Of a DNA stretch of 39,620 bases, positions 7,446-16,595 are shown one piece after another. The position numbers were made by a program, and so were the translations under genes. The notes below the pieces were generated by a model, which saw nothing but the letters and a program-made list of their open reading frames with translations, had not been told where the DNA came from and searched no databases. The stretch's first letter is position 1. Every line of letters starts with the position of its first letter. Origin of the DNA: Deinococcales bacterium (GTDB lineage: Bacteria; Deinococcota; Deinococci; Deinococcales; JAAFIG01); assembly GCA_043778225.1 (NCBI GenBank), contig JAYWGM010000019.1, positions 1-39,620 on the forward strand. The letters run 5' to 3'.

Positions 7446-9038
7446 TTAGAACTCGCCGCGTGCGAAGCTCGAGATGATGTTTGGTGCGCTGGTATCAAAG
7501 CCGCAAATGTCAAGCATTCCAGCGTCTTTTGGATCGGCAATGCTAAATTGCGTGGCGGTCATGCCCACCACCACCAGCCGTGCTGCAATGCCCATGGAAT
7601 CACGGTATCGGCGCAAGGCTTCAAAGGGGTGTACCTTACCAAAGTACGTTTCGTTATCGGTGTAAATCACGAATACATCGGCTTGTACGCCTTTCTCGAG
7701 CGCCCAGAGCATTGGTAAAGCACAATCTGTACCACCGAATGATTGGTTTTGAGTCTTCTTGAGTGCAGTCTCGAGAGAATCGCCTGCGCGGATTCCCACG
7801 TCGCGGAAAGTATCCGCAAAGCCCATGATGTGCGAATTCTTTTCGCTGCGAAGGGTGAGCATTGCCATGGCGGTGCTGGCAAGGTTTGGGGTGAGACCGT
7901 TTACGCCAGCGATGTTGCCCCATGTCATTGAACCTGAAATATCCAAGCCCAATACAAAGCGCTTGTTGGCAGGTGTAATCGTACCAAACGAAGTATAGAA
8001 CGCCTTCTCGAGCGCATCCACAATTTGTGATACGACTACCCAAGTACCATCGCCTTTGATGCTGCGTCCGCCTTTGTACACCAGCATGGCTTTTAGAGCA
8101 TCAATTGGATGGATTCGTCCTTTTCGCAAACTTTCGGCATCGGTGACTCGAGCAACAATTTGTCCAATCACATCCCATGCACCCGGCACAAGTACCTCGT
8201 GCTTGCCAAGATTGCCAAGGTTACGCAGTGTCCAAGTCAAACCGTTGTTCTCGAGTGCAGTGCGGTAGACTTTTTCACCTCGAGCTTCAGTGGGAATGGC
8301 TTCAATAGGCAACTTGTATTCGTGCATGATGGCGGCAGCACTCTTATCGGTTTTTGCCTCGAGCGCCAGGATATGACCACGCACCATGTTCAGCGCGGCA
8401 TCCTCAGACTCGAGAACACCATCCACAAGGTACTTGAACAACGCATTTCGGGTCGCGTCGCTGGTCTTTGGGTGCGAGAGGCGCAAAGCATCGGCTTGAG
8501 TCCAACCATCTCGAGACTTGTACTTGACAGCCCAGAGTGCCAGTTTCTCGAGTGGCATATGCTCGTAGATTTTTGCCACGCCGCTACGGGTCAGACGACC
8601 CCAACCGCCGAACAATTGTACAAACTCGAGGAAGTGCAACATATGCGTACCAGTTCGCGCCACTTCAGGCAGGGCATCCCAAGCTGCTTTACGAGTCGCA
8701 GAATCCACCGAGAGCTTCGCCACGGCTGCAAGTGCCACAAGAGTAGGCTCTGGCTTTGGAGCGCGGTTGTAACGTGCTACATCAAGAATAATCTCGAGGG
8801 CAGTAGCACCTTCAAGGGTCGCAAAATCGCGCACGAAATCGGTCTCGAGCTTGGTTTGACGCGCTTCGGTGGTGTAAAATGTACCACCCTCAGTTCCTAA
8901 AATTAAAAATCGGAGGAAACGAGTTGCATCCGAAACCGCGAAGACAAAACCGAGGGTGTTGTTTTGCACTTGGTCGGCTCGAGCCTTGAGAATTTGCGAG
9001 GTGCTATTTGGACGAATTGCATTGATAAGGTGCTTCAT
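7446..9038 (-). CDS. rsr: Ro60/Rsr RNA-binding protein (TROVE + vWA domains)
   Basis: Start MKHLINAI with SD GGAGGG; QVQNNTLGFVF, RFLILGTEGGTFY, KYKSRDGWTQADALRLSHP, DISGSM MIDAS motif, GGTDCALPM, YTDNET, GMLDICGFD. Confidence 0.95.
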   Translation of the reverse strand: MKHLINAIRPNSTSQILKARADQVQNNTLGFVFAVSDATRFLRFLILGTEGGTFYTTEARQTKLETDFVRDFATLEGATALEIILDVARYNRAPKPEPTLVALAAVAKLSVDSATRKAAWDALPEVARTGTHMLHFLEFVQLFGGWGRLTRSGVAKIYEHMPLEKLALWAVKYKSRDGWTQADALRLSHPKTSDATRNALFKYLVDGVLESEDAALNMVRGHILALEAKTDKSAAAIMHEYKLPIEAIPTEARGEKVYRTALENNGLTWTLRNLGNLGKHEVLVPGAWDVIGQIVARVTDAESLRKGRIHPIDALKAMLVYKGGRSIKGDGTWVVVSQIVDALEKAFYTSFGTITPANKRFVLGLDISGSMTWGNIAGVNGLTPNLASTAMAMLTLRSEKNSHIMGFADTFRDVGIRAGDSLETALKKTQNQSFGGTDCALPMLWALEKGVQADVFVIYTDNETYFGKVHPFEALRRYRDSMGIAARLVVVGMTATQFSIADPKDAGMLDICGFDTSAPNIISSFARGEF

Positions 9039-9102
9039 GATAGACCCTCCTGTAGGGTAAATTCGCAACTCGAGGCGCTGCTCGAGAAACAAGTAAAAAA
9101 AG

Positions 9103-9184
9103 GGGCATGGCTTGAAATCAAACCAATACAACGGCTCAAGCACGAAGAGGAAACACATGGTGCTTGTGTAAGAATTCCACGCCC
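9103..9184 (-). ncRNA. Y-RNA-like structured RNA without tRNA arms, followed by a U7 tract
   Basis: Terminal stem GGGCGTGG/CCATGCCC, internal stem CAAGCAC/GTGCTTG, contains the GAGCCG motif shared with the other Y-like RNAs; directly upstream of rsr. Confidence 0.45.
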
Positions 9185-9211
9185 ATAAAAACAACTCGAA
9201 TGCCAGTAATG

Positions 9212-9340
9212 TGGTGGAGCGAGTGGGATTTGCACCCACGTCCTGACGATTAGAAGTCGATAACCCTCACGCTTCGGCTCTATAAAGAACAAGGTGTGCA
9301 AAAGGATGTTTTATCCGCTCTACTCCTGAGCTACCGCCCC
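9212..9340 (-). ncRNA. Y RNA (YrlA-related), tRNA-framed or circularly permuted form with CCA end
   Basis: Acceptor GGGGCGG/TCGCTCC-A-CCA, D arm GCTC/GAGC, T arm GTGGG-TGCAAAT-CCCAC; 54-nt insert with Ro helix CTTGTTCT-ttat-AGAGC(C)GAAG. Confidence 0.8.
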
Positions 9341-9352
9341 ACGAAAAAATGT

Positions 9353-9476
9353 TGGAACAGGAGGGAATCGAACCCCCGACCTCCCCTGAGTAGAGGTAAT
9401 CCTCGAGCGACGGCTCAGAAAAAAGCAAAAAATGCTGAGGAATTTTTTTGGCGCTCTACCACTGAGCTACTGTTCC
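9353..9476 (-). ncRNA. Y RNA (YrlA-related), tRNA-framed form, second copy
   Basis: Acceptor GGAACAG/CTGTTCC-A, D arm GCTC-AGTGGTA-GAGC, T arm GGGGG-TTCGATT-CCCTC; insert carries TTGCTT...GAGCCGTCGCTCGAGGATTACC. Confidence 0.75.
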
Positions 9477-9483
9477 ATAAAAA

Positions 9484-9705
9484 TCAAAACTCGAGTTGAA
9501 ACGTACTACCCGCATTTGCATTAGCGTTCTTGACTCGTTTAATCAATTCAGATAAACGCATTGAAACCGCCATTGAAAATACTTGATGCTCCTCACCAGA
9601 GGCTTCTCGAGCAACCGAAACAGGCACACCAGAAATAACGAGCGTCACACCCGTTTTGGTGGTGTAGGTATAATTAATTCTGGTTTCTGGAGCAATCACA
9701 ATCAA
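9484..9705 (-). CDS. Small protein resembling a YgiT/MqsA-type zinc-finger antitoxin domain, but without Cys
   Basis: YTY..G.TLVISGVPVSV...GE..VFS..V..RL pattern; GTGA/TTGA-type overlap with the upstream ORF. Confidence 0.5.
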   Translation of the reverse strand: MIVIAPETRINYTYTTKTGVTLVISGVPVSVAREASGEEHQVFSMAVSMRLSELIKRVKNANANAGSTFQLEF

Positions 9706-9905
9706 GCCGCTTGATTCTTAGGCATGGTTGCAATTAACGCCCTAAGTACAGCATTAACTTGTTCAGGCGTAGCAAAAACTTGTGCCACATCAGGCTCGAG
9801 CAGCACAACTCGAGAACCACTTGGAATACTTGTGAAACGATTTGGTTTGGCTTGACTATAATCAAAAATATACTCTGGTCTTAATTCATCCAAGGTGTTT
9901 GGCAT
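9702..9905 (-). CDS. BrnA-like/CopG-type antitoxin-like small protein (start MPNTLDEL)
   Basis: ELRPEYIFDYSQAKPNRF...VLLEPDVAQVF.TPEQVNAVLR pattern; the longer ORF would overlap tRNA-Ser. Confidence 0.6.
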   Translation of the reverse strand: MPNTLDELRPEYIFDYSQAKPNRFTSIPSGSRVVLLEPDVAQVFATPEQVNAVLRALIATMPKNQAA

Positions 9906-9936
9906 GACGCAAATTCTAGCGCTTTTAGAGATTAAA

Positions 9937-10019
9937 AGGAATCGGAGGGATTTGAACCCTCGAGACATCAGTCTTCCTTCTTAGCAGGAAGGTGCAATAA
10001 GCCACTCTGCCACGATTCC
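9937..10019 (-). tRNA. tRNA-Ser(GCT)
   Basis: GGAATCG/CGATTCC acceptor, CCTTC-CTGCTAA-GAAGG, long variable arm, TTCAAAT loop; no encoded CCA. Confidence 0.9.
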
Positions 10020-10045
10020 ATAAGGCTCGAGAAAACCTCGAGCTT

Positions 10046-10123
10046 TGGCGTGCCTGACAGGATTTGAACCTGCAACGATACGTGTTGGAGACGTACTCCC
10101 TTAGCCAGTCGGGATTCAGACAC
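10046..10123 (-). tRNA. tRNA-Trp(CCA)
   Basis: GTGTCTG/CAGGCAC-G-CCA, TACGT-CTCCAAC-ACGTA. Confidence 0.88.
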
Positions 10124-10127
10124 AAAA

Positions 10128-10210
10128 AGGAAAGCAAGGGAATCGAACCCTTGAGGCTTTTACGCCCAGCCGTTTTCAAAACGGTGTCCTCGACCCACCG
10201 GACGCTTTCC
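10128..10210 (-). tRNA. tRNA-Ser(TGA), atypical D region
   Basis: GGAAAGC/GCTTTCC, CCGT-TTTGAAA-ACGG, long variable arm, AAGGG-TTCGATT-CCCTT. Confidence 0.8.
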
Positions 10211-10215
10211 ATAAA

Positions 10216-10285
10216 AGACCTCGCTCGGAATTGAACCGAGACTCCTTGGTTTGCAGCCAAAGCCCATGCCGTCTGGCTCGAGATC
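10216..10285 (-). tRNA. tRNA-Cys(GCA)
   Basis: GATCTCG/CGAGGTC with U73, TTTGG-CTGCAAA-CCAAG. Confidence 0.85.
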
Positions 10286-10300
10286 AAAATTTGATATATT

Positions 10301-11191
10301 TTAGAATGGAGGAAGTCCATCAATTCTATCCAGTTCCATTCCTGAAAAACTTTCAAATATAAACCATGCGTCATTTTTGGCAATCAATCGAAATTTAAAT
10401 TGATTGCCAGAGTATCCGCTTTGGGTTCTTATATCTTGAATTATAGAAGAAAAGTTATCATATGCTTCTTGTTGTAAACCACCTAAAAATCGCCCATAAT
10501 GGTCATGTATTTGAAGAGCCTTCATGCTATTTCCTGCTGTGGCATAACCACCACCTGGAGGCATCAAAACTGTCCCATCAGAAAGTTCAACAAATATTGT
10601 CATACCCGCTTTTCGTGCTTGTGTAAAGTGACGTGGCTCTATAAGTTTTGGGAAAACATTTTCAAAAGGTGTTTTAAACCGATCAAAAAGCTCAGACCAA
10701 TTAGAGTAGGCAATCTCGAGCAAATCTCTTTCTCCCCACACGGTTGGATGACTTCTGCCATGTGAACGAACGTCAATGCAATAAATCGTATCTTGGTCAA
10801 CCATACAAAATAAAATTTCTTGCGTTCCTGATTCCGTAAAGTGTAAATGATGTATACCCCAATCAAACAGTATTGGGTCATACTTTTCAGTATCCATAAT
10901 TGAACGACTTTGGTGTGACATTAAATTTTCGCCACGCCCAGATTTTTCTTGCAGTAATTGCAAGTCATTTTGATGTTGGCTTGGACAGGTAAATTCTTTA
11001 GCGTAGACAAACCTACGCGGGGCAATTGGAATTTTTCGTATCTCAGCGTTAAAATACTGGAGTGCTATTTTTTGAGGATCAGTGGCAGCAGAAATACTAT
11101 ATCCTTGGGCTACTAATAACATACCCAAATAAGCTGCCCAATCTTCGTAGAAACTGATTTCCAAGTCAATGCCGTCTATGGTTGTTTTCAT
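10301..11191 (-). CDS. Hypothetical 296-aa protein, AT-rich, possible RelE/YafQ-like ribonuclease core
   Basis: Long ORF inside the tRNA array; DWGIHHLHF...EILFCMVDQDTIYCIDVRSH; function is inference only. Confidence 0.7.
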   Translation of the reverse strand: MKTTIDGIDLEISFYEDWAAYLGMLLVAQGYSISAATDPQKIALQYFNAEIRKIPIAPRRFVYAKEFTCPSQHQNDLQLLQEKSGRGENLMSHQSRSIMDTEKYDPILFDWGIHHLHFTESGTQEILFCMVDQDTIYCIDVRSHGRSHPTVWGERDLLEIAYSNWSELFDRFKTPFENVFPKLIEPRHFTQARKAGMTIFVELSDGTVLMPPGGGYATAGNSMKALQIHDHYGRFLGGLQQEAYDNFSSIIQDIRTQSGYSGNQFKFRLIAKNDAWFIFESFSGMELDRIDGLPPF

Positions 11192-11268
11192 TCCAAATCA
11201 TTTTACTTTATGGTTTTAATTTTTGTACATGACAACTTTAGAATGTAAGAAATTTTTAGGTTGATATA

Positions 11269-11479
11269 TGGAGGAGGCGGGACTCGAACCCGCATATTCG
11301 GCACTGTCGGTTTTAGGAAACCCGCTTCCTGCGGCAAGTTACAAACCCACTCAAGATTCGTCATCTCGAGTCGCCAGCCAGTGCATCCGGAACCTCCGAC
11401 GGTTTTTGACCTGTGCCGCAGCTATTACGCTTACCGAATCCGTAGTTTTGCGGTGCGCGACCGTTTGCGCTACTCCCCC
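11269..11479 (-). ncRNA. 211-nt tRNA-framed structured RNA with a large pseudoknotted insert in the variable-arm position
   Basis: Acceptor GGGGGAG/CTCCTCC-A, D arm GCGC/GCGC, T arm GCGGG-TTCGAGT-CCCGC; nested stems ATTCGGTA/TGCCGAAT and CTGCGGCA/TGCCGCAG. Confidence 0.75.
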
Positions 11480-11482
11480 ATG

Positions 11483-11560
11483 TGGTGTTCCTTCAGGGAC
11501 TCGAACCCAGACTTGTCAGTGTTTTAAGCACTGCGCCTCTACCAATTGGGCTAAAGAAAC
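11483..11560 (-). tRNA. tRNA-Leu(TAA), short variable arm
   Basis: GTTTCTT/AAGGAAC-A-CCA, CAGTG-CTTAAAA-CACTG. Confidence 0.85.
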
Positions 11561-11561
11561 A

Positions 11562-11637
11562 TGGTGCGAATTACGAGAGTCGAACTCGTGTTTCCTGCAT
11601 GGCAAGCAGATGTCGTAAACCACTGGACGAAATTCGC
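11562..11637 (-). tRNA. tRNA-Gly(GCC)
   Basis: GCGAATT/AATTCGC-A-CCA, TCTGC-TTGCCAT-GCAGG. Confidence 0.9.
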
Positions 11638-11639
11638 AT

Positions 11640-11715
11640 TGGTGCGTCTGGTAGGAGTCGAACCTACAGATTCTCGGGTTTGAACCGAGCGAGTTTGCCA
11701 TTCCTCTACAAACGC
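11640..11715 (-). tRNA. tRNA-Leu(CAA), short variable arm
   Basis: GCGTTTG/CAGACGC-A-CCA, CTCGG-TTCAAAC-CCGAG. Confidence 0.88.
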
Positions 11716-11745
11716 ATGATTCTCGAGGAAATTCCCGAGAATTTT

Positions 11746-11821
11746 TGGTACGCCGAGCGGGACTCGAACCCGCAAGCTCCTCGTTCTAAGCGAGGTGAGT
11801 TTACCATTTCTCTATCAGCGC
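11746..11821 (-). tRNA. tRNA-Leu(TAG), short variable arm
   Basis: GCGCTGA/TCGGCGT-A-CCA, CCTCG-CTTAGAA-CGAGG. Confidence 0.9.
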
Positions 11822-11846
11822 ATAGACCCTCGAGACTCGAGGGTTA

Positions 11847-11924
11847 TGGTTTCCAAGGTCAGGATTTGAACCCGTAAATTCTTGTCGCTCAAACAAGTGA
11901 CTTTACCAATTTGTCTACACGGAT
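11847..11924 (-). tRNA. tRNA-Leu(GAG), degenerate (mismatched acceptor and T stems; possible pseudogene)
   Basis: CTTGT-TTGAGCG-ACAAG anticodon arm, TTCAAAT loop, ACCA end; acceptor ATCCGTG/CTTGGAA has 2 mismatches. Confidence 0.65.
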
Positions 11925-11926
11925 AA

Positions 11927-11986
11927 GCTGGTGCAGGTTTCCCATGCGGGTGCTGGTGCAGGTTTCCCATGCGGGTGCTGGTGCAG
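11927..11986. repeat. 25-nt tandem repeat (2.4 copies) duplicating the 3' end (CTGCACCA) of tRNA-Gly(TCC)
   Basis: gctggtgcaggtttcccatgcgggt at 11927 and 11952, partial at 11977. Confidence 0.9.
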
Positions 11987-12054
11987 TTGGCGGGAATCGA
12001 ACCCGCATTCTCTGTTTGGAAGACAGCCATCCTAAGCCGTTGGATGACAACTGC
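11979..12054 (-). tRNA. tRNA-Gly(TCC)
   Basis: GCAGTTG/CAACTGC-A-CCA, CTGT-CTTCCAA-ACAG. Confidence 0.9.
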
Positions 12055-12060
12055 ATAAAG

Positions 12061-12132
12061 CCCTTATTCATGTGGCACAACATAAAGCGGTGTGTGCCAT
12101 TTGCTCCCGCTCGAGCAAATGCAAAATAAGGG
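12061..12132 (-). ncRNA. Putative three-way-junction structured RNA in an array spacer
   Basis: Closing stem CCCTTATT/AATAAGGG enclosing ATTTGCTC/GAGCAAAT and TGGCACA/TGTGCCA. Confidence 0.4.
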
Positions 12133-12157
12133 TGGTGACCCCACGTTGTGCGGGGTT

Positions 12158-12232
12158 TGGAGCAGAAGGACAGGTTTCGCACCTGCGTCTCACCTCGGTT
12201 GAGGTGCATCTTGCTGTTTAGAAGACTTCTGC
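12158..12232 (-). tRNA. Aberrant tRNA-like gene with no canonical anticodon loop
   Basis: Perfect acceptor GCAGAAG/CTTCTGC-T-CCA, T arm GCAGG-TGCGAAA-CCTGT, anticodon arm CACCTC-AACC-GAGGTG. Confidence 0.6.
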
Positions 12233-12233
12233 A

Positions 12234-12309
12234 TGGTGGGTTCTCTCGAATTTGAATCGAGACCTCGACGATTAAAAGTCGTCTGCTCTGCCAGTTGAGC
12301 TAAAAACCC
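12234..12309 (-). tRNA. tRNA-Lys(TTT)
   Basis: GGGTTTT/AGAACCC-A-CCA, GACGA-CTTTTAA-TCGTC. Confidence 0.92.
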
Positions 12310-12334
12310 ATGTGGGGCTGATTAAACCCCATTT

Positions 12335-12410
12335 TGGTGATCTCGAGGAGAATTGAACTCCTGTCTGTCGGGTGAAAACCGCCTATCCTAAACCATTAGA
12401 CGACGAGACC
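12335..12410 (-). tRNA. tRNA-Glu(TTC)
   Basis: GGTCTCG/CGAGATC-A-CCA, CGG-TTTTCAC-CCG. Confidence 0.85.
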
Positions 12411-12413
12411 ATG

Positions 12414-12488
12414 TGGAAGGAAAGTTGGGATTTGAACCCAAAATAACAGCTTCAAAGGCTGTTGAGTTGCCAGTTACTCCACTTTCCT
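12414..12488 (-). tRNA. tRNA-Gln(TTG)
   Basis: AGGAAAG/CTTTCCT-T-CCA, ACAGC-CTTTGAA-GCTGT. Confidence 0.88.
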
Positions 12489-12495
12489 ATTTTGG

Positions 12496-12611
12496 ACTCG
12501 AGCAAGGTTTGTAGCACAGTAAAAAACGACTCGAGAATACCTCGAGTTTACAGGATTTGAACCTGTTCTCCTTTGGGGATTTACCGATAACTGTGTTACT
12601 TCGGCTCGAGC
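12496..12611 (-). ncRNA. Y RNA, YrlA-like topology (Ro stem ends, T arm, loop-closed acceptor-like stem, no D arm)
   Basis: 5' GCTCGAGC(C)GAAG pairs with 3' CTTGCTCGAGT; internal CAGG-TTCAAAT-CCTG and ACTCGAG-GTATT-CTCGAGT. Confidence 0.75.
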
Positions 12612-12617
12612 AAAAAC

Positions 12618-12693
12618 TGGTCGAGAGACTTGGAATTGAACCAAGACTTACTGTGCTTCAGACAATCGTGCAGACCAACTACACCATCTCTCG
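12618..12693 (-). tRNA. tRNA-Phe(GAA)
   Basis: CGAGAGA/TCTCTCG-A-CCA, ATTGT-CTGAAGC-ACAGT. Confidence 0.88.
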
Positions 12694-12696
12694 TTT

Positions 12697-12769
12697 TGGG
12701 TGCGGTGATGGGAGTTGAACCCATCAATCGAGCTTATGAGACTCGAGGCATCACCGGACGCACACCGCA
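12697..12769 (-). tRNA. tRNA with CAT anticodon (Met; subtype not determinable)
   Basis: TGCGGTG/CACCGCA-C-CCA, CGAGT-CTCATAA-GCTCG, reduced D arm. Confidence 0.8.
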
Positions 12770-12776
12770 TTAAAAC

Positions 12777-12850
12777 TGGTCGAAGATGATGGAATCGAAC
12801 CATCGTTGCCTGCATATCAGACAGGTGTCTTACCTTTAGACGAATCTTCG
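12777..12850 (-). tRNA. tRNA-Ile(GAT)
   Basis: CGAAGAT/ATCTTCG-A-CCA, CCTGT-CTGATAT-GCAGG. Confidence 0.9.
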
Positions 12851-12905
12851 TTTCTCCTCGAGTTGTTTGGAGGTAATTCTCGAGGGGTGCGTTTATAAAA
12901 CGCTC

Positions 12906-12981
12906 TGGTCGGCACGGCAAGGGTCGAACTTGCGGCTTCTGCTTTGTAAGAGCAGCACTCATACCACTGAGTTACGCGCCG
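12906..12981 (-). tRNA. tRNA-Val(TAC)
   Basis: CGGCGCG/CGTGCCG-A-CCA, CTGCT-CTTACAA-AGCAG. Confidence 0.9.
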
Positions 12982-13019
12982 TTAAACTCGAGGCGGTCAA
13001 GCGCCGTACTCTCGAGCAT

Positions 13020-13094
13020 TGGTGGAAATGATCGGATTTGAACCGATAACCTTCGCTGTGCAAAAGCGCTGCTCTCCCGTTGAGCTACAATCCC
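13020..13094 (-). tRNA. tRNA-Ala(TGC)
   Basis: GGGATTG/CATTTCC-A-CCA with G3:U70, CGCT-TTTGCAC-AGCG. Confidence 0.88.
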
Positions 13095-13117
13095 ATGTTG
13101 GGAACGGGTGTTCCCTT

Positions 13118-13194
13118 TGGTCGAGCGTGTAAGAATTGAACTTACCTAATGTCCTGTTTCCAAAACAGGAGACCCTCCTTGAGTCTGACGCTCG
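13118..13194 (-). tRNA. tRNA-Pro(TGG)
   Basis: CGAGCGT/ACGCTCG-A-CCA, CCTGT-TTTGGAA-ACAGG. Confidence 0.85.
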
Positions 13195-13199
13195 AGATA

Positions 13200-13273
13200 A
13201 GATTCGGATAGGAATTGAACCTATGACCTTTGGCTTCGCATACCAATGCTCGTTTCCACTGAGCTACCGAATC
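13200..13273 (-). tRNA. tRNA-Arg(GCG)
   Basis: GATTCGG/CCGAATC, TTGGT-ATGCGAA-GCCAA, no encoded CCA. Confidence 0.8.
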
Positions 13274-13287
13274 AAGTGATAGTGCTG

Positions 13288-13364
13288 TGGTGAACCGAGC
13301 AGGACTTGAACCTGCGACTTCCATGTTAGAAGCATGGCACTCTACTCCACTGAGTTATCGGTTC
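13288..13364 (-). tRNA. tRNA-Arg(TCT)
   Basis: GAACCGA/TCGGTTC-A-CCA, CCATG-CTTCTAA-CATGG. Confidence 0.92.
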
Positions 13365-13392
13365 GTGAAACCCATGTATTCACTGGTTCATG

Positions 13393-13468
13393 TGGTGAAT
13401 CGGGCAGGACTCGAACCTGCAACTTCCACGTTCGAAGCGTGGCACTCTGTCCTTTGAGTTACCGATTC
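13393..13468 (-). tRNA. tRNA-Arg(TCG)
   Basis: GAATCGG/CCGATTC-A-CCA, CCACG-CTTCGAA-CGTGG. Confidence 0.92.
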
Positions 13469-13474
13469 ATGATG

Positions 13475-13535
13475 CTCGAGCAAGTGAGTACAGCACGACA
13501 ATATTTTCAAGATAATCGTGTTGCTTCGGCTCGAG
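13475..13535 (-). ncRNA. Minimal Y RNA (Ro-binding hairpin only, ~61 nt)
   Basis: CTCGAGC(C)GAAG...CACGATTATC...GTCGTG...CACTTGCTCGAG. Confidence 0.75.
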
Positions 13536-13541
13536 ATGGGT

Positions 13542-13612
13542 ACTGCAAACAAGTGGATTCTTGAGGCGTTTTAATCTGGGAAAGAGATAAGCCTCGAGAT
13601 TCGGCTCGCAGT
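13542..13612 (-). ncRNA. Minimal Y RNA (Ro-binding hairpin only, ~71 nt)
   Basis: ACTGCGAGC(C)GAA-TCTCGAGGC-TTATC...GCCTCAAGA...CACTTGTTTGCAGT. Confidence 0.75.
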
Positions 13613-13616
13613 TATA

Positions 13617-13691
13617 TGGCGGTTCTAACGGGAATCGAACCCGTATTGCCTGAGAGACAGTCAAGCATCGTAGCCGTTGGAACATAGAACC
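13617..13691 (-). tRNA. tRNA-Asp(GTC)
   Basis: GGTTCTA/TAGAACC-G-CCA, CTTGA-CTGTCTC-TCAGG. Confidence 0.88.
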
Positions 13692-13717
13692 ATTTCATGG
13701 TGTCAAACACAGACCTA

Positions 13718-13792
13718 TGGCTGACTCGGTAGGGATCGAACCTACGACATCCTGATTAACAGTCAGGCGCTCTACCTCTAAGCTACAAGTCA
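13718..13792 (-). tRNA. tRNA-Asn(GTT)
   Basis: TGACTTG/CGAGTCA-G-CCA, CCTGA-CTGTTAA-TCAGG. Confidence 0.92.
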
Positions 13793-13796
13793 AAAC

Positions 13797-13880
13797 TGGT
13801 GGATAGAGAGGGATTTGAACCCCCAGTGTTTTTCAACGTCTGATCTACAGTCAGGTGCAATACCATTATGCGATCTACCC
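13797..13880 (-). tRNA. tRNA-Tyr(GTA)
   Basis: GGGTAGA/TCTATCC-A-CCA, CTGA-CTGTAGA-TCAG, long variable arm. Confidence 0.9.
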
Positions 13881-14096
13881 TTAATTTGCTCGAGAGTTGT
13901 ACGCCCCTGAGCGTGTTCGCCTCAAGAATAATCGTGATGCGCCGCACAGCACATAAATTCACGTTTTCTTGAAGAAGAAAAATTTGGCATTCGAGTTGTC
14001 AAAGTATACGCTCGAGAACGAGTTCTAGTCGTCGCAAGCAGTTTGGGTGCATTTTTAGCTTCTCGAGGACACGAATTCTCGAGTTGCGTACACCTG

Positions 14097-14172
14097 TGGG
14101 TTCATCGTCGGGAATCGCACCCGAGTTTCTAGGGTCACAACCTAGCGTCTTGTCTACTGGACGACAACGAAC
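14097..14172 (-). tRNA. tRNA-His(GTG)
   Basis: G-1:C73, TTCGTTG/CGATGAA, CTAGG-TTGTGAC-CCTAG, CCA. Confidence 0.9.
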
Positions 14173-14188
14173 ATAATTTGTGCGGTAC

Positions 14189-14225
14189 AAAAAATTTGAG
14201 CCTATCCATTGCGGTTAGGCTCAAA
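14189..14225 (-). terminator. Intrinsic terminator/attenuator 16 nt before the first tRNA
   Basis: TTTGAGCCTA-(11 nt)-TAGGCTCAAA followed by TTTTTT. Confidence 0.85.
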
Positions 14226-14244
14226 AGAGTATGCCTGTTCCGCC

Positions 14245-14406
14245 TTACCTAATACGATTTTCCAAAATACTCGAGAAGCTACGACCTTGCCAATTGCCCT
14301 GTCCTAAATCTGAGTGATAACCGAGGTTACGCAATTTCAGATTGGCACAATCGCTTGCCCGACTCGGGCGTGTGGCGTATTGTTTTGTGGGGTTTATAAA
14401 GTTCAT
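14245..14406 (-). CDS. Putative 53-aa leader peptide MNFINPTKQYATRPSRASDCANLKLRNLGYHSDLGQGNWQGRSFSSILENRIR
   Basis: SD GGAG 6 nt before ATG (14406); TAA at 14245-14247, 19 nt before the terminator; not in the supplied ORF track (below its length cut-off). Confidence 0.7.
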   Translation of the reverse strand: MNFINPTKQYATRPSRASDCANLKLRNLGYHSDLGQGNWQGRSFSSILENRIR

Positions 14407-14465
14407 AAATTTCTCCGATTCGAGGTCTTTGGTCTCGAGGGTCAGGTGTTGTTTCCTCGAGCAGC

Positions 14466-14494
14466 ATCGTACCGAGCCGTTTGGGTCTTGTCAT
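14466..14494 (-). promoter_or_regulatory. Putative sigma70-type promoter for the tRNA/Y RNA/rsr unit
   Basis: ATGACA (14494-14489)-N17-TACGAT (14471-14466). Confidence 0.55.
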
Positions 14495-14545
14495 GCGTCG
14501 TTTTGCGTAGCAGGAGCTAAGCCATTTAGCAGAGGGCAAGATAAG

Positions 14546-14615
14546 AAGGTAAAAGGGTTAAAACGTTAAAAAGCACCTCCTGCTCTTACCTTTTTACCTT
14601 TTGACCTTTTTACCC
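14546..14615. repeat. Inverted arrays of 8-nt tandem repeats (AAAGGTTA/AAAGGTAA-like)
   Basis: aaggtaaaagggttaaaacgtta ... ttacctttttaccttttgacctttttacc; related element at 17231-17310. Confidence 0.65.
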
Positions 14616-15053
14616 TATGCTTTTCCCCTCGAGTAAGTGTTTGACTGCATCCTGAACGCGGCGCAACGGATAATAGGCGGCGTTGCGGCGTTGACGCAGC
14701 AGGCTCTCGCCAACCAAGCGCGGCACAAAACCATCTTTTAGCTCGAGAATACGGGCTGGGGTTTCGCCGTTCAAATGCTCAATTAGCACAGCCGTTAAAG
14801 CCCTTGTCAGGGTCGTGGCTTCGCTGCCAACCGTAGCAGCAAGCTCAAGCGTATTTTGGTTGTGGCGCAGGTATAAACCCATTTCGTCTAAGCACTCTTG
14901 GTCTTGGCGAATTTCGCTGATGTCCCAAGTTTCACCGTGCTGTGGCTCGAGTTTAGAAGCATTTTGCGCCAATTCAATTAAGGCTTTTATTCGCTGGCTG
15001 TTGTCCATTTTTTCAAAGTCTTGCACTTGAGTTTCTAGGGTCTCGAGGCTCAT
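14610..15053 (-). CDS. sufE: SufE family Fe-S metabolism protein
   Basis: RIKALIELA, single Cys (QECLD), EATTLTRALTAVL, LNGETPARIL, LLRQRRNA. Confidence 0.7.
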   Translation of the reverse strand: MSLETLETQVQDFEKMDNSQRIKALIELAQNASKLEPQHGETWDISEIRQDQECLDEMGLYLRHNQNTLELAATVGSEATTLTRALTAVLIEHLNGETPARILELKDGFVPRLVGESLLRQRRNAAYYPLRRVQDAVKHLLEGKSIG

Positions 15054-15118
15054 GGGCTTAGCTTAACGTACTTTACAAGTTTTATCAGGTATGACACACA
15101 ACACAATGGCGCACAATC

Positions 15119-15145
15119 AAAAAGACCTCCCAAATCGGGAGGTCT
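15119..15145 (-). terminator. Intrinsic terminator after the PEGA gene
   Basis: AGACCTCCC-GATTT-GGGAGGTCT-TTTT. Confidence 0.8.
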
Positions 15146-15161
15146 CGAGCAACAAGTTATT

Positions 15162-16595
15162 TTACAAACGCACTAGGTTTGCAAAAATTTCGGTTACGCC
15201 ACCAGCACGGATGCTGAATTGTTGGACTTGAGTCCGAAAACCAGGTGCAACAATCGTGACTTCATGGTTGCCAACTGGTAAATCGTTGACGCGCAGAACA
15301 CCGTCGTTACCAACAACACCGACATCGTTGCCGTTGATAAAAACTCGAGCATTGGCAACATTGCTGCGAACCACAAGGCTACCAGCCAAGGATTGCAAGT
15401 CGGCACGAACGGTGGTGGTCTGACCAGCTTGAACCGTCACGGTGGTGCTGTAGTCTTGGAAGCCGTTGAGGACAACGCGAACCGTGTATTGACCGGCTGG
15501 GACAGTGATTTGACCCGTACCCGTACCGATGCTGCTGCCGTTGACAATCACTTGTGCGCCATTTGGAGCAATCACTTGCAGCACGCCATTTTGAACAATG
15601 GCTTGGAGGTTGGCATTGACCACCACATTTGCACCTGCGCCAACATTGACGGTCTGGTTAAAATCTTGGAAGCCATTGGCAGTCACACGGACGCTGTGCT
15701 GACCGGGAGCAACTTGAAGGGTCATATCGCCATTTCCAGCCCGAACACCATCGATAAATACGGTGGCATTATTTGGTGTGACTTGGACGGTAATCGTACC
15801 GTTTTGATTGATGGCTCGTAAGTTAAAGTTCAGTTGGACAACTTGACCGCCACCAACATTGACCGTTTGGGTCACATCCGAGTATCCATTGGCAGTGACC
15901 CGAATCGAGTGTTGACCAGCTGCGACGGTGACTGAAACTGGGCTGTTGCCTGCCAAGACATTATCCACAAAAACTTGTGCGCCACTGACATTGCTGTTGA
16001 TTTGCAGTGTGCCTGTGTTCTGTACCACGGCTCGAGCTTGGGTACGGAAATCGACATATGCCGAAGTCCAGTCTTGTGGGGGCAGTGGCGTGACTACCAA
16101 AGCCAGAGGGCGAGCCAAACCTGTACCTTGAACCGTAGCTTGGGCAAAGTTGCCACTGCTTACTTGTGGAATCACTTGCGAGAGATTAAGCGGGGTTTTT
16201 GAAGCCAAGGCAAAGATTTTTTCTTGACCATATGGCGCAGATATATCTATGGTGTACTGGTCGTTAGCTCCGGGGAAGGTGCGGGTTTCGCCAGCCCTCA
16301 AAAATGGTGTACCGTTAGAAAAGCCGTTTGGTAACAAAACCACAACATCGTTGGTGGCAGTGATGTTAAACGCATAGACATAGGCATCTTGATTGACGCT
16401 CAACGAGATTTTCAGGCTTTCACCTTGGCTGTAAAGTGGGTTGACTCCAGCTTTATTAACAGCCACCTGAACTTTTAGGCTGGTTGGAACTGGATTGACC
16501 ACAATCCCTTGTGGGGATGCGACTGGGGCGGATTGCGCTAAGGCAATACCAGAGAAGAGGGCGAATGCGGCACTGAGTAAGGCTTTGAATTTCAT
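15162..16595 (-). CDS. Exported DUF4384 + 4x PEGA domain protein (S-layer-like)
   Basis: SD GGAGG before MKFKALL; signal peptide; YSQGESLKISLSVNQDAYVY; repeated G.L.I.SN..GA.VF.DG...G.HSIRV.A.GY units. Confidence 0.88.
   Translation of the reverse strand: MKFKALLSAAFALFSGIALAQSAPVASPQGIVVNPVPTSLKVQVAVNKAGVNPLYSQGESLKISLSVNQDAYVYAFNITATNDVVVLLPNGFSNGTPFLRAGETRTFPGANDQYTIDISAPYGQEKIFALASKTPLNLSQVIPQVSSGNFAQATVQGTGLARPLALVVTPLPPQDWTSAYVDFRTQARAVVQNTGTLQINSNVSGAQVFVDNVLAGNSPVSVTVAAGQHSIRVTANGYSDVTQTVNVGGGQVVQLNFNLRAINQNGTITVQVTPNNATVFIDGVRAGNGDMTLQVAPGQHSVRVTANGFQDFNQTVNVGAGANVVVNANLQAIVQNGVLQVIAPNGAQVIVNGSSIGTGTGQITVPAGQYTVRVVLNGFQDYSTTVTVQAGQTTTVRADLQSLAGSLVVRSNVANARVFINGNDVGVVGNDGVLRVNDLPVGNHEVTIVAPGFRTQVQQFSIRAGGVTEIFANLVRL

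Follow-up and report, generated by a model that had tools for sequence, protein, structure and literature searches.

A predicted leader-peptide attenuator ahead of a supernumerary tRNA array in the Deinococcales

We analysed a stretch of 39,620 nt from a Deinococcales bacterium (GenBank assembly GCA_043778225.1, contig JAYWGM010000019.1, positions 1 to 39,620; hereafter the window), in which a short open reading frame (ORF) and a predicted intrinsic terminator precede a run of 26 tRNA genes on the minus strand. An initial annotation of this DNA had proposed that the segment 14189..14494 is a leader peptide with a terminator/antiterminator switch that gates the tRNA genes. The promoter, the Shine-Dalgarno (SD) sequence, the ORF, the terminator with its U6 tract and tRNA-His were all found at the minus-strand coordinates given there. 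The features of the locus, in the direction of transcription, are:

14505..14530, minus strand: inverted repeat GCTAA-atggc-TTAGC, operator-like, ending ~10 nt before the -35
14466..14494, minus strand: sigma-70-type promoter-like site ATGACA-N17-TACGAT, with a predicted transcription start near 14459
14413..14416, minus strand: SD sequence GGAG, 6 nt upstream of the ATG
14245..14406, minus strand: leader ORF of 53 codons plus TAA (ATG at 14406, stop at 14247-14245; 162 nt including the stop)
14303..14345, minus strand: predicted hairpin within the ORF, CCAATCTGA.../...TCAGATT..GG (RNAalifold, six same-genus leaders, columns 77-86 and 108-119)
14211..14243, minus strand: predicted antiterminator hairpin, GCGG 14243-14240 with CCGC 14214-14211 and AGGC 14236-14233 with GCCT 14220-14217 (-11.2 kcal/mol)
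14189..14225, minus strand: predicted intrinsic terminator, stem TTTGAGCCTA/TAGGCTCAAA plus an inner CC/GG pair, T6 at 14194-14189 (-16.0 kcal/mol)
14097..14172, minus strand: tRNA-His(GTG) with encoded G-1 and CCA (G-1 at 14172, gene 14171-14097), first gene of the array, 16 nt past the U-tract
9937..14171, minus strand: array of 26 tRNA genes beginning with tRNA-His, the putative regulated unit, spanning 4,235 bp

The host genome (G000; 4.03 Mb, 89% complete) carries 68 tRNA genes, 26 in the array and 42 dispersed. Long tRNA arrays have been defined as holding 20 or more tRNA genes at a density of at least 2 per kb (PMC4758250), and with 26 genes in 4,235 bp the array has this size and density. 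A dispersed housekeeping tRNA set is present beside it, as far as a genome of this completeness tells. The initial annotation had spoken of a backup tRNA set, and in agreement with this the tally of tRNA genes placed 22 of the 26 array anticodons outside the array as well. Because of this duplication and of the 42 dispersed genes we regard the array as supernumerary.

Layout and conservation of the leader

Single elements of the window are weak evidence when taken alone. A 53-codon open frame is not rare, and the promoter-like site, which agrees with the consensus at 9/12 positions, is by itself at chance level (11 such sites in 6 kb versus 6.2±2.4 in shuffled sequences). We compared the locus across 14 genomes, G000 included, from four genera of one Deinococcales family, six from the window's genus and eight from three other genera; five family genomes with no array-type tRNA-His match were left out. 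The initial annotation had suggested looking for a conserved geometry of SD, ORF, stop and terminator, and the layout of promoter, SD, ORF, stop, spacer, terminator and tRNA-His was present in 14/14 genomes. Since it recurs in every family genome examined, the layout exceeds chance.

A search of genome contigs with the leader matched five other genomes only, all of the same genus, in which full-length relatives (68-83% identity) each stand ahead of the orthologous array. Within G000 the leader is single-copy, as the 25 other matches to the 439-nt query all fall within the first 82 nt of that query (14531-14610). Array-type tRNA matches came from 18/18 further family genomes, and a survey of 364 genomes from the phylum (query: the His-to-Asp part of the array) placed arrays that begin with tRNA-His solely in this family. 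Pattern searches for the leader gave 391 matches in metagenome contigs and 22 in viral contigs, none of which was confirmed, and phage and plasmid collections gave no match. An Rfam cmscan of 9000-16000 (E≤1) returned no family besides tRNAs, T-box included, and the matches within 14172-14610 belong to tRNA-His only.

The leader ORF is open in all 14 genomes and comprises 48-72 codons (48-53 in the window's genus, 55-72 in the three other genera). In all 13 leaders tabulated, the ATG is preceded at 6-12 nt by a purine-rich SD-like stretch and the ORF frame lacks internal stops, while the other five frames mostly contain 1-4. The six same-genus ORFs start with MNF and share the same TAA end, with TAA exactly 22 nt before GAGCCT. 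All indels within the ORF are multiples of 3 (+15, +3 and +3 nt in the window's genus; +36 and +6 nt in genus g5). In the same-genus alignment 13, 19 and 25 of 48 columns vary at codon positions 1, 2 and 3, respectively, and the most closely related leaders differ chiefly at position 3 (e.g. 1/0/4 and 2/2/6 differences). Between genera, peptide identity is merely 20-26%; M1 is invariant, and one Pro at approximately residue 13-14 and one Glu towards the C-terminus are nearly so. Because the frame is kept at such low identity, it is translation that appears to be conserved rather than a particular protein. Presence, length and end of the ORF persist while its sequence drifts, which is the look of a cis-acting leader peptide, and we infer from these patterns that the ORF is translated.

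Searched with a profile, a set of 5.8 billion proteins yielded 23 family members of 48-83 residues, which belong to the same four sub-families and are all unnamed or 'hypothetical', and no Pfam or NCBIfam family matched the leader peptide. A recount of the window peptide reproduced the earlier description: 19 distinct residues with no Val, 6 Arg and 6 Asn, the codons ATA, CGG, TTA and AGG, and no run of any single residue or codon. Taken alone, 19/20 residues in one peptide has a probability of 0.12. All 23 family peptides contain 18-20 distinct residues (mean 19.0), and each contains Trp, Cys and His; random protein segments of equal length contain 16.5-17.9±1.4 distinct residues, and the joint presence of W, C and H has a P of 0.07-0.15. 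The proposal that the leader is a general sensor of translation gains indirect support from the absence of codon runs and from the breadth of residues in the 23 peptides; rare codons are not enriched. Sensing of rare codons was considered separately and found unsupported, as these codons lack conservation and the codon usage is unremarkable.

In 7/14 leaders the stop codon is followed by C. A stop codon followed by C is a slow termination context in E. coli, and by analogy this context would lengthen the stay of the ribosome at the leader stop. The predicted hairpin within the ORF consists mostly of invariant pairs, with the length differences among orthologues located in its loop; it might act as a pause hairpin, judging by the modelled fold only. 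In the same-genus consensus fold the SD/ATG region pairs with a conserved TGGCAAGGTCGTAG block.

Upstream of the SD the leader extends for ~50 nt and contains a hairpin based on CTCGAG. This palindrome is hyper-abundant in the genome, with 24,877 copies in 4.03 Mb (26.7 times the expectation from base composition, ~1 per 162 bp) and 256 copies in the window, whereas GGGCCC, AGGCCT and GACGTC occur once each in the genome. Its abundance is reminiscent of cyanobacterial HIP1, and it underlies many hairpins of the leader and the spacers.

Terminator, antiterminator and ribosome geometry

A terminator was predicted in 14/14 leaders with a U-tract of 5-7 nt, and in the 13 that were scored its energy ranged from -11.9 to -22.9 kcal/mol. 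The terminator of the window is missing from the general hairpin scan, which permits loops of 3-8 nt only. In a cross-genus MAFFT alignment the 3' arms were out of register, and the pairs were therefore tabulated by script. The outer seven terminator pairs were canonical in 98/98 cells of this table (14 sequences; G008 has a different 12-bp stem, of which a 7-bp window was entered). Double changes, read from the 13 positionally alignable sequences (all but G008), replaced A-U by G-C at pair 2 and C-G by U-A at pair 5, and pair 7 occurs as A-U, U-A and C-G.

The initial annotation had assigned the antiterminator to the last codons and the stop, where TTAGGT-AAGG was proposed to pair with GCCTAA and CTTT of the terminator 5' arm. 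This helix did not hold up: it amounts to -3.2 kcal/mol versus -11.2 kcal/mol for the hairpin behind the stop, and its 5' strand is changed in 4/5 orthologues (TCAGGT in three; CCACTT in G006; AAGG to AACA in G007 and G006). The supported antiterminator is formed by the post-stop spacer, which measures 19 nt in the window and 19-25 nt across the leaders and pairs with the 5' half of the terminator. An equivalent two-part antiterminator is the minimum free energy structure of the RNA from the stop to the terminator loop in 14/14 leaders (-8.8 to -15.5 kcal/mol). Tested against 500 shuffles per spacer, it gave P values of 0.000-0.054 in 13/13 sequences. It also forms in partial transcripts of the whole leader that end before the terminator 3' arm (6/6 same-genus sequences).

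Spacers and terminator arms have changed together between genera. The arms read GAGCCUA, GAGCCUC, GGGCUUC and CUUGGGUCUGGC by genus, and the spacers that changed with them contain AGGC, GGCU/UCCC, CCCA/CCAUA and CAAGG. Native combinations of spacer and terminator have a mean energy of -11.9 kcal/mol, compared with -7.3 kcal/mol for cross-genus swaps, and when each genus is represented by one sequence, the native assignment comes out as the best among the 24 permutations. In addition, (C/U)GG directly after the stop is conserved in 14/14 sequences.

Measured from the first stop base, the antiterminator 5' strand runs from nt 3-9 to nt 15-23, and the terminator 5' arm starts at nt 23-29, outside the ribosome footprint. 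A terminating ribosome would mask the antiterminator since its 5' strand starts this close to the stop. We modelled a footprint of 30 nt, which reaches 18 nt upstream and 11 nt downstream from the first A-site base; when the stop occupies the A site, the footprint takes in the outer antiterminator helix and a portion of the inner one and leaves the terminator uncovered. Counts of paired bases in the 5' arm under the ribosome masks were uninformative, and energy differences were used instead, namely the mean gain on adding the terminator 5' half (13 sequences):

No ribosome: -9.1 kcal/mol
Ribosome with the stop in the A site: -5.3 kcal/mol
Ribosome 1 codon before the stop: -5.9 kcal/mol
Ribosome 2 codons before the stop: -7.3 kcal/mol
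Ribosome at least 3 codons before the stop: -9.9 to -9.1 kcal/mol

The gain was weaker with the ribosome at the stop in 13/13 sequences. The earlier idea that a ribosome reaching the stop would mask the antiterminator agrees with the footprint folding, provided that the helix at 14243-14211 takes the place of the one originally named. The observation of the initial annotation was confirmed and its interpretation is partly supported: it had recognised the right kind of device and the wrong antiterminator.

Promoter region, array and flanking sequences

The promoter-like site recurs in all 14 leaders, with a -35 of ATGACA in 11, ATCACA in two and ATGTGC in one, a spacer of 17-18 nt and a -10 of the form TAnnnT in 14/14. 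A second promoter-like sequence, TTGGCA-N18-TATTTT at 14293-14264, was rejected as a conserved promoter, as its 9/12 agreement is at chance level and it is lost in G006 and in the other genera. Upstream of the -35, a perfect inverted repeat of at least 5 bp, GCTTAG(T)-N4-8-(A)CTAAGC, is found in 11/14 leaders; in the window the repeat overlaps a degenerate GCTTAGC..GCTACGC. The repeat of G007 is a compensatory GCGTA/TACGC version, and the best upstream repeat of G013 has a different sequence, GCCGCAC/GTGCGGC. From its sequence this repeat looks like the operator of a dimeric regulator.

Homology between the genomes ends at the inverted repeat (~14530), and the genes farther upstream differ (loci L002-L006 and L032-L038 compared with the window). 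The leader and the array thus stand in differing neighbourhoods although they are family-wide. In the window, a dispersed repeat of ~70-80 nt occupies the segment 14531-14610 (minus strand), which separates a SufE-like gene (14610-15053) from the leader promoter; the repeat has 25 further matches across the genome contigs, and copies also occur in the sister genomes.

Between the U-tract and tRNA-His the interval is short, and neither its length nor its sequence is conserved across the leaders. A promoter scan of the window locus identified no promoter-like site in this interval. The base directly 5' of the tRNA-His body is G in all 13 orthologues tabulated. Downstream, the spacer between tRNA-His and tRNA-Tyr (13881-14096, minus strand) contains a 19-nt box, TTGACAACTCGA[AG]TGCCAA, which includes TTGACA (box TTGACAACTCGAATGCCAA). 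This box is nearly invariant across 13 family loci of four genera, with divergence in G008. Behind the box, the six same-genus loci carry a covarying A/U-rich hairpin and a degenerate version of the leader promoter (GCGCATCACGAT). No good -10 was found for the box in the window's genus.

Several further features lie in or near the array. Among the 26 tRNAs called, tRNA-Thr is absent. Two tRNA-like genes are located just past the array (9353-9476 and 9212-9340, minus strand), and an insertion of ~50 nt splits each of them, either in the anticodon arm or behind the D arm. The gene at 9353-9476 scores 50.4 bits with Rfam, and ARAGORN calls neither of the two. Within the array, an ORF of 296 aa (10301-11191, minus strand) lies between tRNA-Leu(TAA) and tRNA-Cys. 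Neither Pfam nor NCBIfam matched it, and it was found in just 2/19 family genomes; it is probably a lineage-specific insertion outside the system.

Proposed mechanism, alternatives and related systems

Judging from the sequence and the computed folds, we consider it likely that the element is a ribosome-dependent leader-peptide transcription attenuator that gates the supernumerary array of 26 tRNA genes. Transcription would start at the conserved promoter, and a ribosome would load on the 53-codon leader ORF and trail the RNA polymerase. If this ribosome has reached the last codons or the stop while the polymerase copies the terminator, its footprint would cover the antiterminator 5' strand; with the antiterminator masked, the terminator hairpin would form and transcription would end 16 nt before tRNA-His. 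If the ribosome is late, stalled at least 3 codons before the stop or never loaded, the spacer would pair first with the terminator 5' arm, and the polymerase would read into the tRNA genes. Such a delay could come from an inhibitor, from poor initiation, or from scarcity of or damage to almost any tRNA. The element would then probably switch spare tRNAs on when ribosomes fall behind. As the leader lacks codon runs and includes almost all amino acids, the element most likely responds to the general progress of translation and not to one amino acid. We tentatively extend this to a cis-acting 'translation progress meter', in which a leader sampling nearly the full range of amino acids would tie the transcription of a complete spare tRNA set directly to where the first ribosome stands, and the whole would act as a self-contained rescue circuit for failing translation without a regulator protein; this broader reading is possible, though not quite probable.

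A number of observations weigh against this interpretation. Folded to equilibrium, the full leader adopts the terminator, and the antiterminator is weaker than the terminator in 11/13 sequences. The switch would therefore have to be kinetic, and both this and a working terminator are inferred from the folds. Masking at the stop is partial, with a mean residual gain of -5.3 kcal/mol, and in G009 the value changes just from -11.3 to -9.5 kcal/mol. Since the antiterminator pairs are invariant within the window's genus, the support from covariation is limited to four lineages (P=1/24). Folds of untranslated partial transcripts contained no anti-antiterminator, and in them the ORF hairpin does not compete with the antiterminator; in the absence of an upstream competitor, an untranslated transcript is predicted to read through. 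The same-genus consensus fold as a whole has a positive (unfavourable) covariation term; its pairing of the SD/ATG region with the TGGCAAGGTCGTAG block shows no double changes and is absent from the fold of genus g5.

Other points of this kind concern the peptide and the starts of transcription. The excess of residue diversity is modest per lineage (P 0.025-0.42) and the family members are related and not independent, so that it is a hint and not a proof. Codon usage is ordinary (CAI-like index 0.69-0.745 versus 0.745±0.05; P 0.15-0.48) and shows no enrichment of rare codons, and neither regulatory codon runs nor a recognised arrest motif was found in the leader peptide. Within sub-families the peptides are well kept, e.g. 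HQTVRSWQGRNE[FY]RLEV, which could reflect a function in trans or a constraint from RNA structure. The operator-like repeat upstream of the -35 suggests that a protein regulator acts too. Finally, the genes past tRNA-His might have a start of their own, given the His-Tyr box and the degenerate promoter copy.

The locus could also be read as a small ORF that encodes a trans-acting small protein, with the hairpin and U-tract merely serving as its terminator and the array being transcribed by leaky read-through or from internal starts. Conservation within sub-families, the terminator as the equilibrium structure, and the 19-nt box at 13 loci together with the promoter copy at six same-genus loci would all fit. 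However, peptide identity between genera is just 20-26% and no Pfam or NCBIfam family was matched; the ORF always stands at the head of the array, with one copy in the genome and none in the phage and plasmid collections or the viral and metagenome contigs searched; and in the window's genus a usable -10 is lacking at the His-Tyr box. A trans-acting protein also leaves the co-varying antiterminator behind the stop and the fixed stop distance unexplained, and we regard it as unlikely.

Slightly less probable still is a riboregulator in which binding of a trans factor (protein, small RNA or tRNA) to the post-stop spacer decides between terminator and antiterminator, with no part in sensing for the ORF. 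The alternative hairpins exist regardless of whether the ORF is translated, (C/U)GG after the stop is conserved in 14/14 sequences, and the operator-like repeat indicates that at least one protein factor probably acts at the locus. Such a regulator would not account for an ORF, SD and frame that are kept across four genera with in-frame indels, nor for a stop that always lies 1-5 nt (5 in genus g3) from the first paired base of the antiterminator, and no Rfam family besides tRNAs, T-box included, was found in 9000-16000. An antibiotic-specific sensor, in which a nascent-peptide motif stalls the drug-bound ribosome as in the erm, cat and bmrB leaders and the tRNAs are the drug response, is just as improbable: the ORF length and logic match bmrB, an almost invariant Pro at approximately codon 13-14 precedes a small residue, and the Anabaena array is described as induced by chloramphenicol and other inhibitors (PMC8421152), but known arrest motifs were not identified, conservation of the peptide between genera is confined to M1, one Pro and one Glu, and the stall position would be of little matter since any delay of at least 3 codons frees the antiterminator.

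As a ribosome-dependent attenuator, the element would belong to a class of mechanism that is already known. What would be new are the regulated genes, a leader free of codon runs that contains nearly all amino acids, and an antiterminator directly behind the stop. The T-box riboswitch binds uncharged tRNA directly and needs no ORF. Like the T-box, the predicted switch would tie a terminator/antiterminator choice to tRNA charging; here the ribosome would be the reader, and Rfam gave no T-box match.

The leader-peptide attenuators of amino-acid operons (E. coli trpL type; PMC4191407) resemble the predicted element in having a short ORF close to the promoter and, ahead of the regulated genes, an intrinsic terminator that is mutually exclusive with an antiterminator. 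In both, a ribosome at or near the leader stop would mask the antiterminator 5' strand, and a ribosome held upstream would lead to read-through. Unlike the trpL type, the leader has no cognate codon run, samples 18-20 amino acids and spans 48-72 codons; no anti-antiterminator of the 1:2 type was found in the folds, so that absence of translation predicts read-through; and the genes that it would regulate encode tRNAs, not biosynthetic enzymes.

The closest mechanistic relative is bmrB-bmrCD of B. subtilis (PMC4191407). The bmrB ORF measures 162 nt, as does the leader ORF here with its stop. In bmrB, efficient translation is reported to favour the terminator, and slowed translation a weaker antiterminator and read-through; both elements would be general sensors of impaired translation and not of one amino acid, and ribosome-targeting drugs favour the bmrB anti-terminator (PMC4191407). 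The two differ in that the terminator of bmrB is located within the ORF and the one here 19 nt past the stop, and in that bmrB has a predicted anti-anti-terminator and its expression was lowered when translation was blocked (PMC4191407). The target of bmrB is a drug-efflux ABC transporter instead of tRNAs (PMC4191407). The Pfam and NCBIfam searches with the leader peptide, which did not include a comparison with BmrB itself, revealed no relation in sequence. Another comparable leader is the toiL upstream ORF (uORF) of E. coli topAI-yjhQ, for which it has been proposed that one uORF responds to many translation stresses, as variously stalled ribosomes remodel the downstream RNA; in contrast to the element described here, toiL relies on an occluded ribosome-binding site and on Rho-dependent termination, rather than on an intrinsic terminator paired with an antiterminator, to control a toxin-antitoxin operon (PMC12121999).

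For the array itself, the comparison is with the L-array (trn operon) of Anabaena sp. PCC 7120, which is likewise supernumerary, with more than 20 tRNA genes beside a dispersed set (PMC8421152). It is described as silent and induced by translational stress, which is the physiology that the element here would produce. Control in Anabaena is placed at the promoter, with 9-nt direct repeats over the -10 and transcription start and a proposed labile repressor, and the text of that study contains 0 occurrences of 'attenuat' and 'terminator' (PMC8421152). The Anabaena repeat TGTWNWWNWNNWGTANYNWA is absent at the leader promoter; the window contains one match with one mismatch (1075-1094), at a chance expectation of 0.91. 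No publication on such leader-peptide attenuation of tRNA arrays was found in the full-text literature, in a search that left subscription journals mostly outside, and among the papers listed there none combined tRNA-array with attenuation terms, those on tRNA arrays containing 0 occurrences of the latter.

In a 2021 survey, Deinococcus-Thermus was among the phyla with mostly stand-alone tRNA genes, and longer arrays were exponentially rarer (PMC8421152). The present analysis documents a long tRNA array in the Deinococcales, an order of that phylum. Anabaena is the one studied case of the silencing and switching on of long supernumerary tRNA arrays (PMC8421152). The attenuator proposed here is a compact element of ~300 nt, and if the interpretation is correct, the ribosome itself would be the sensor, in a mechanism that differs from the promoter repeats and hypothetical labile repressor of Anabaena and is explicit enough to be legible from the DNA. 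Leader-peptide attenuation would then extend from amino-acid and resistance genes to tRNA supply, and these bacteria would possess a direct link in cis from the failure of translation to the replenishment of tRNAs.

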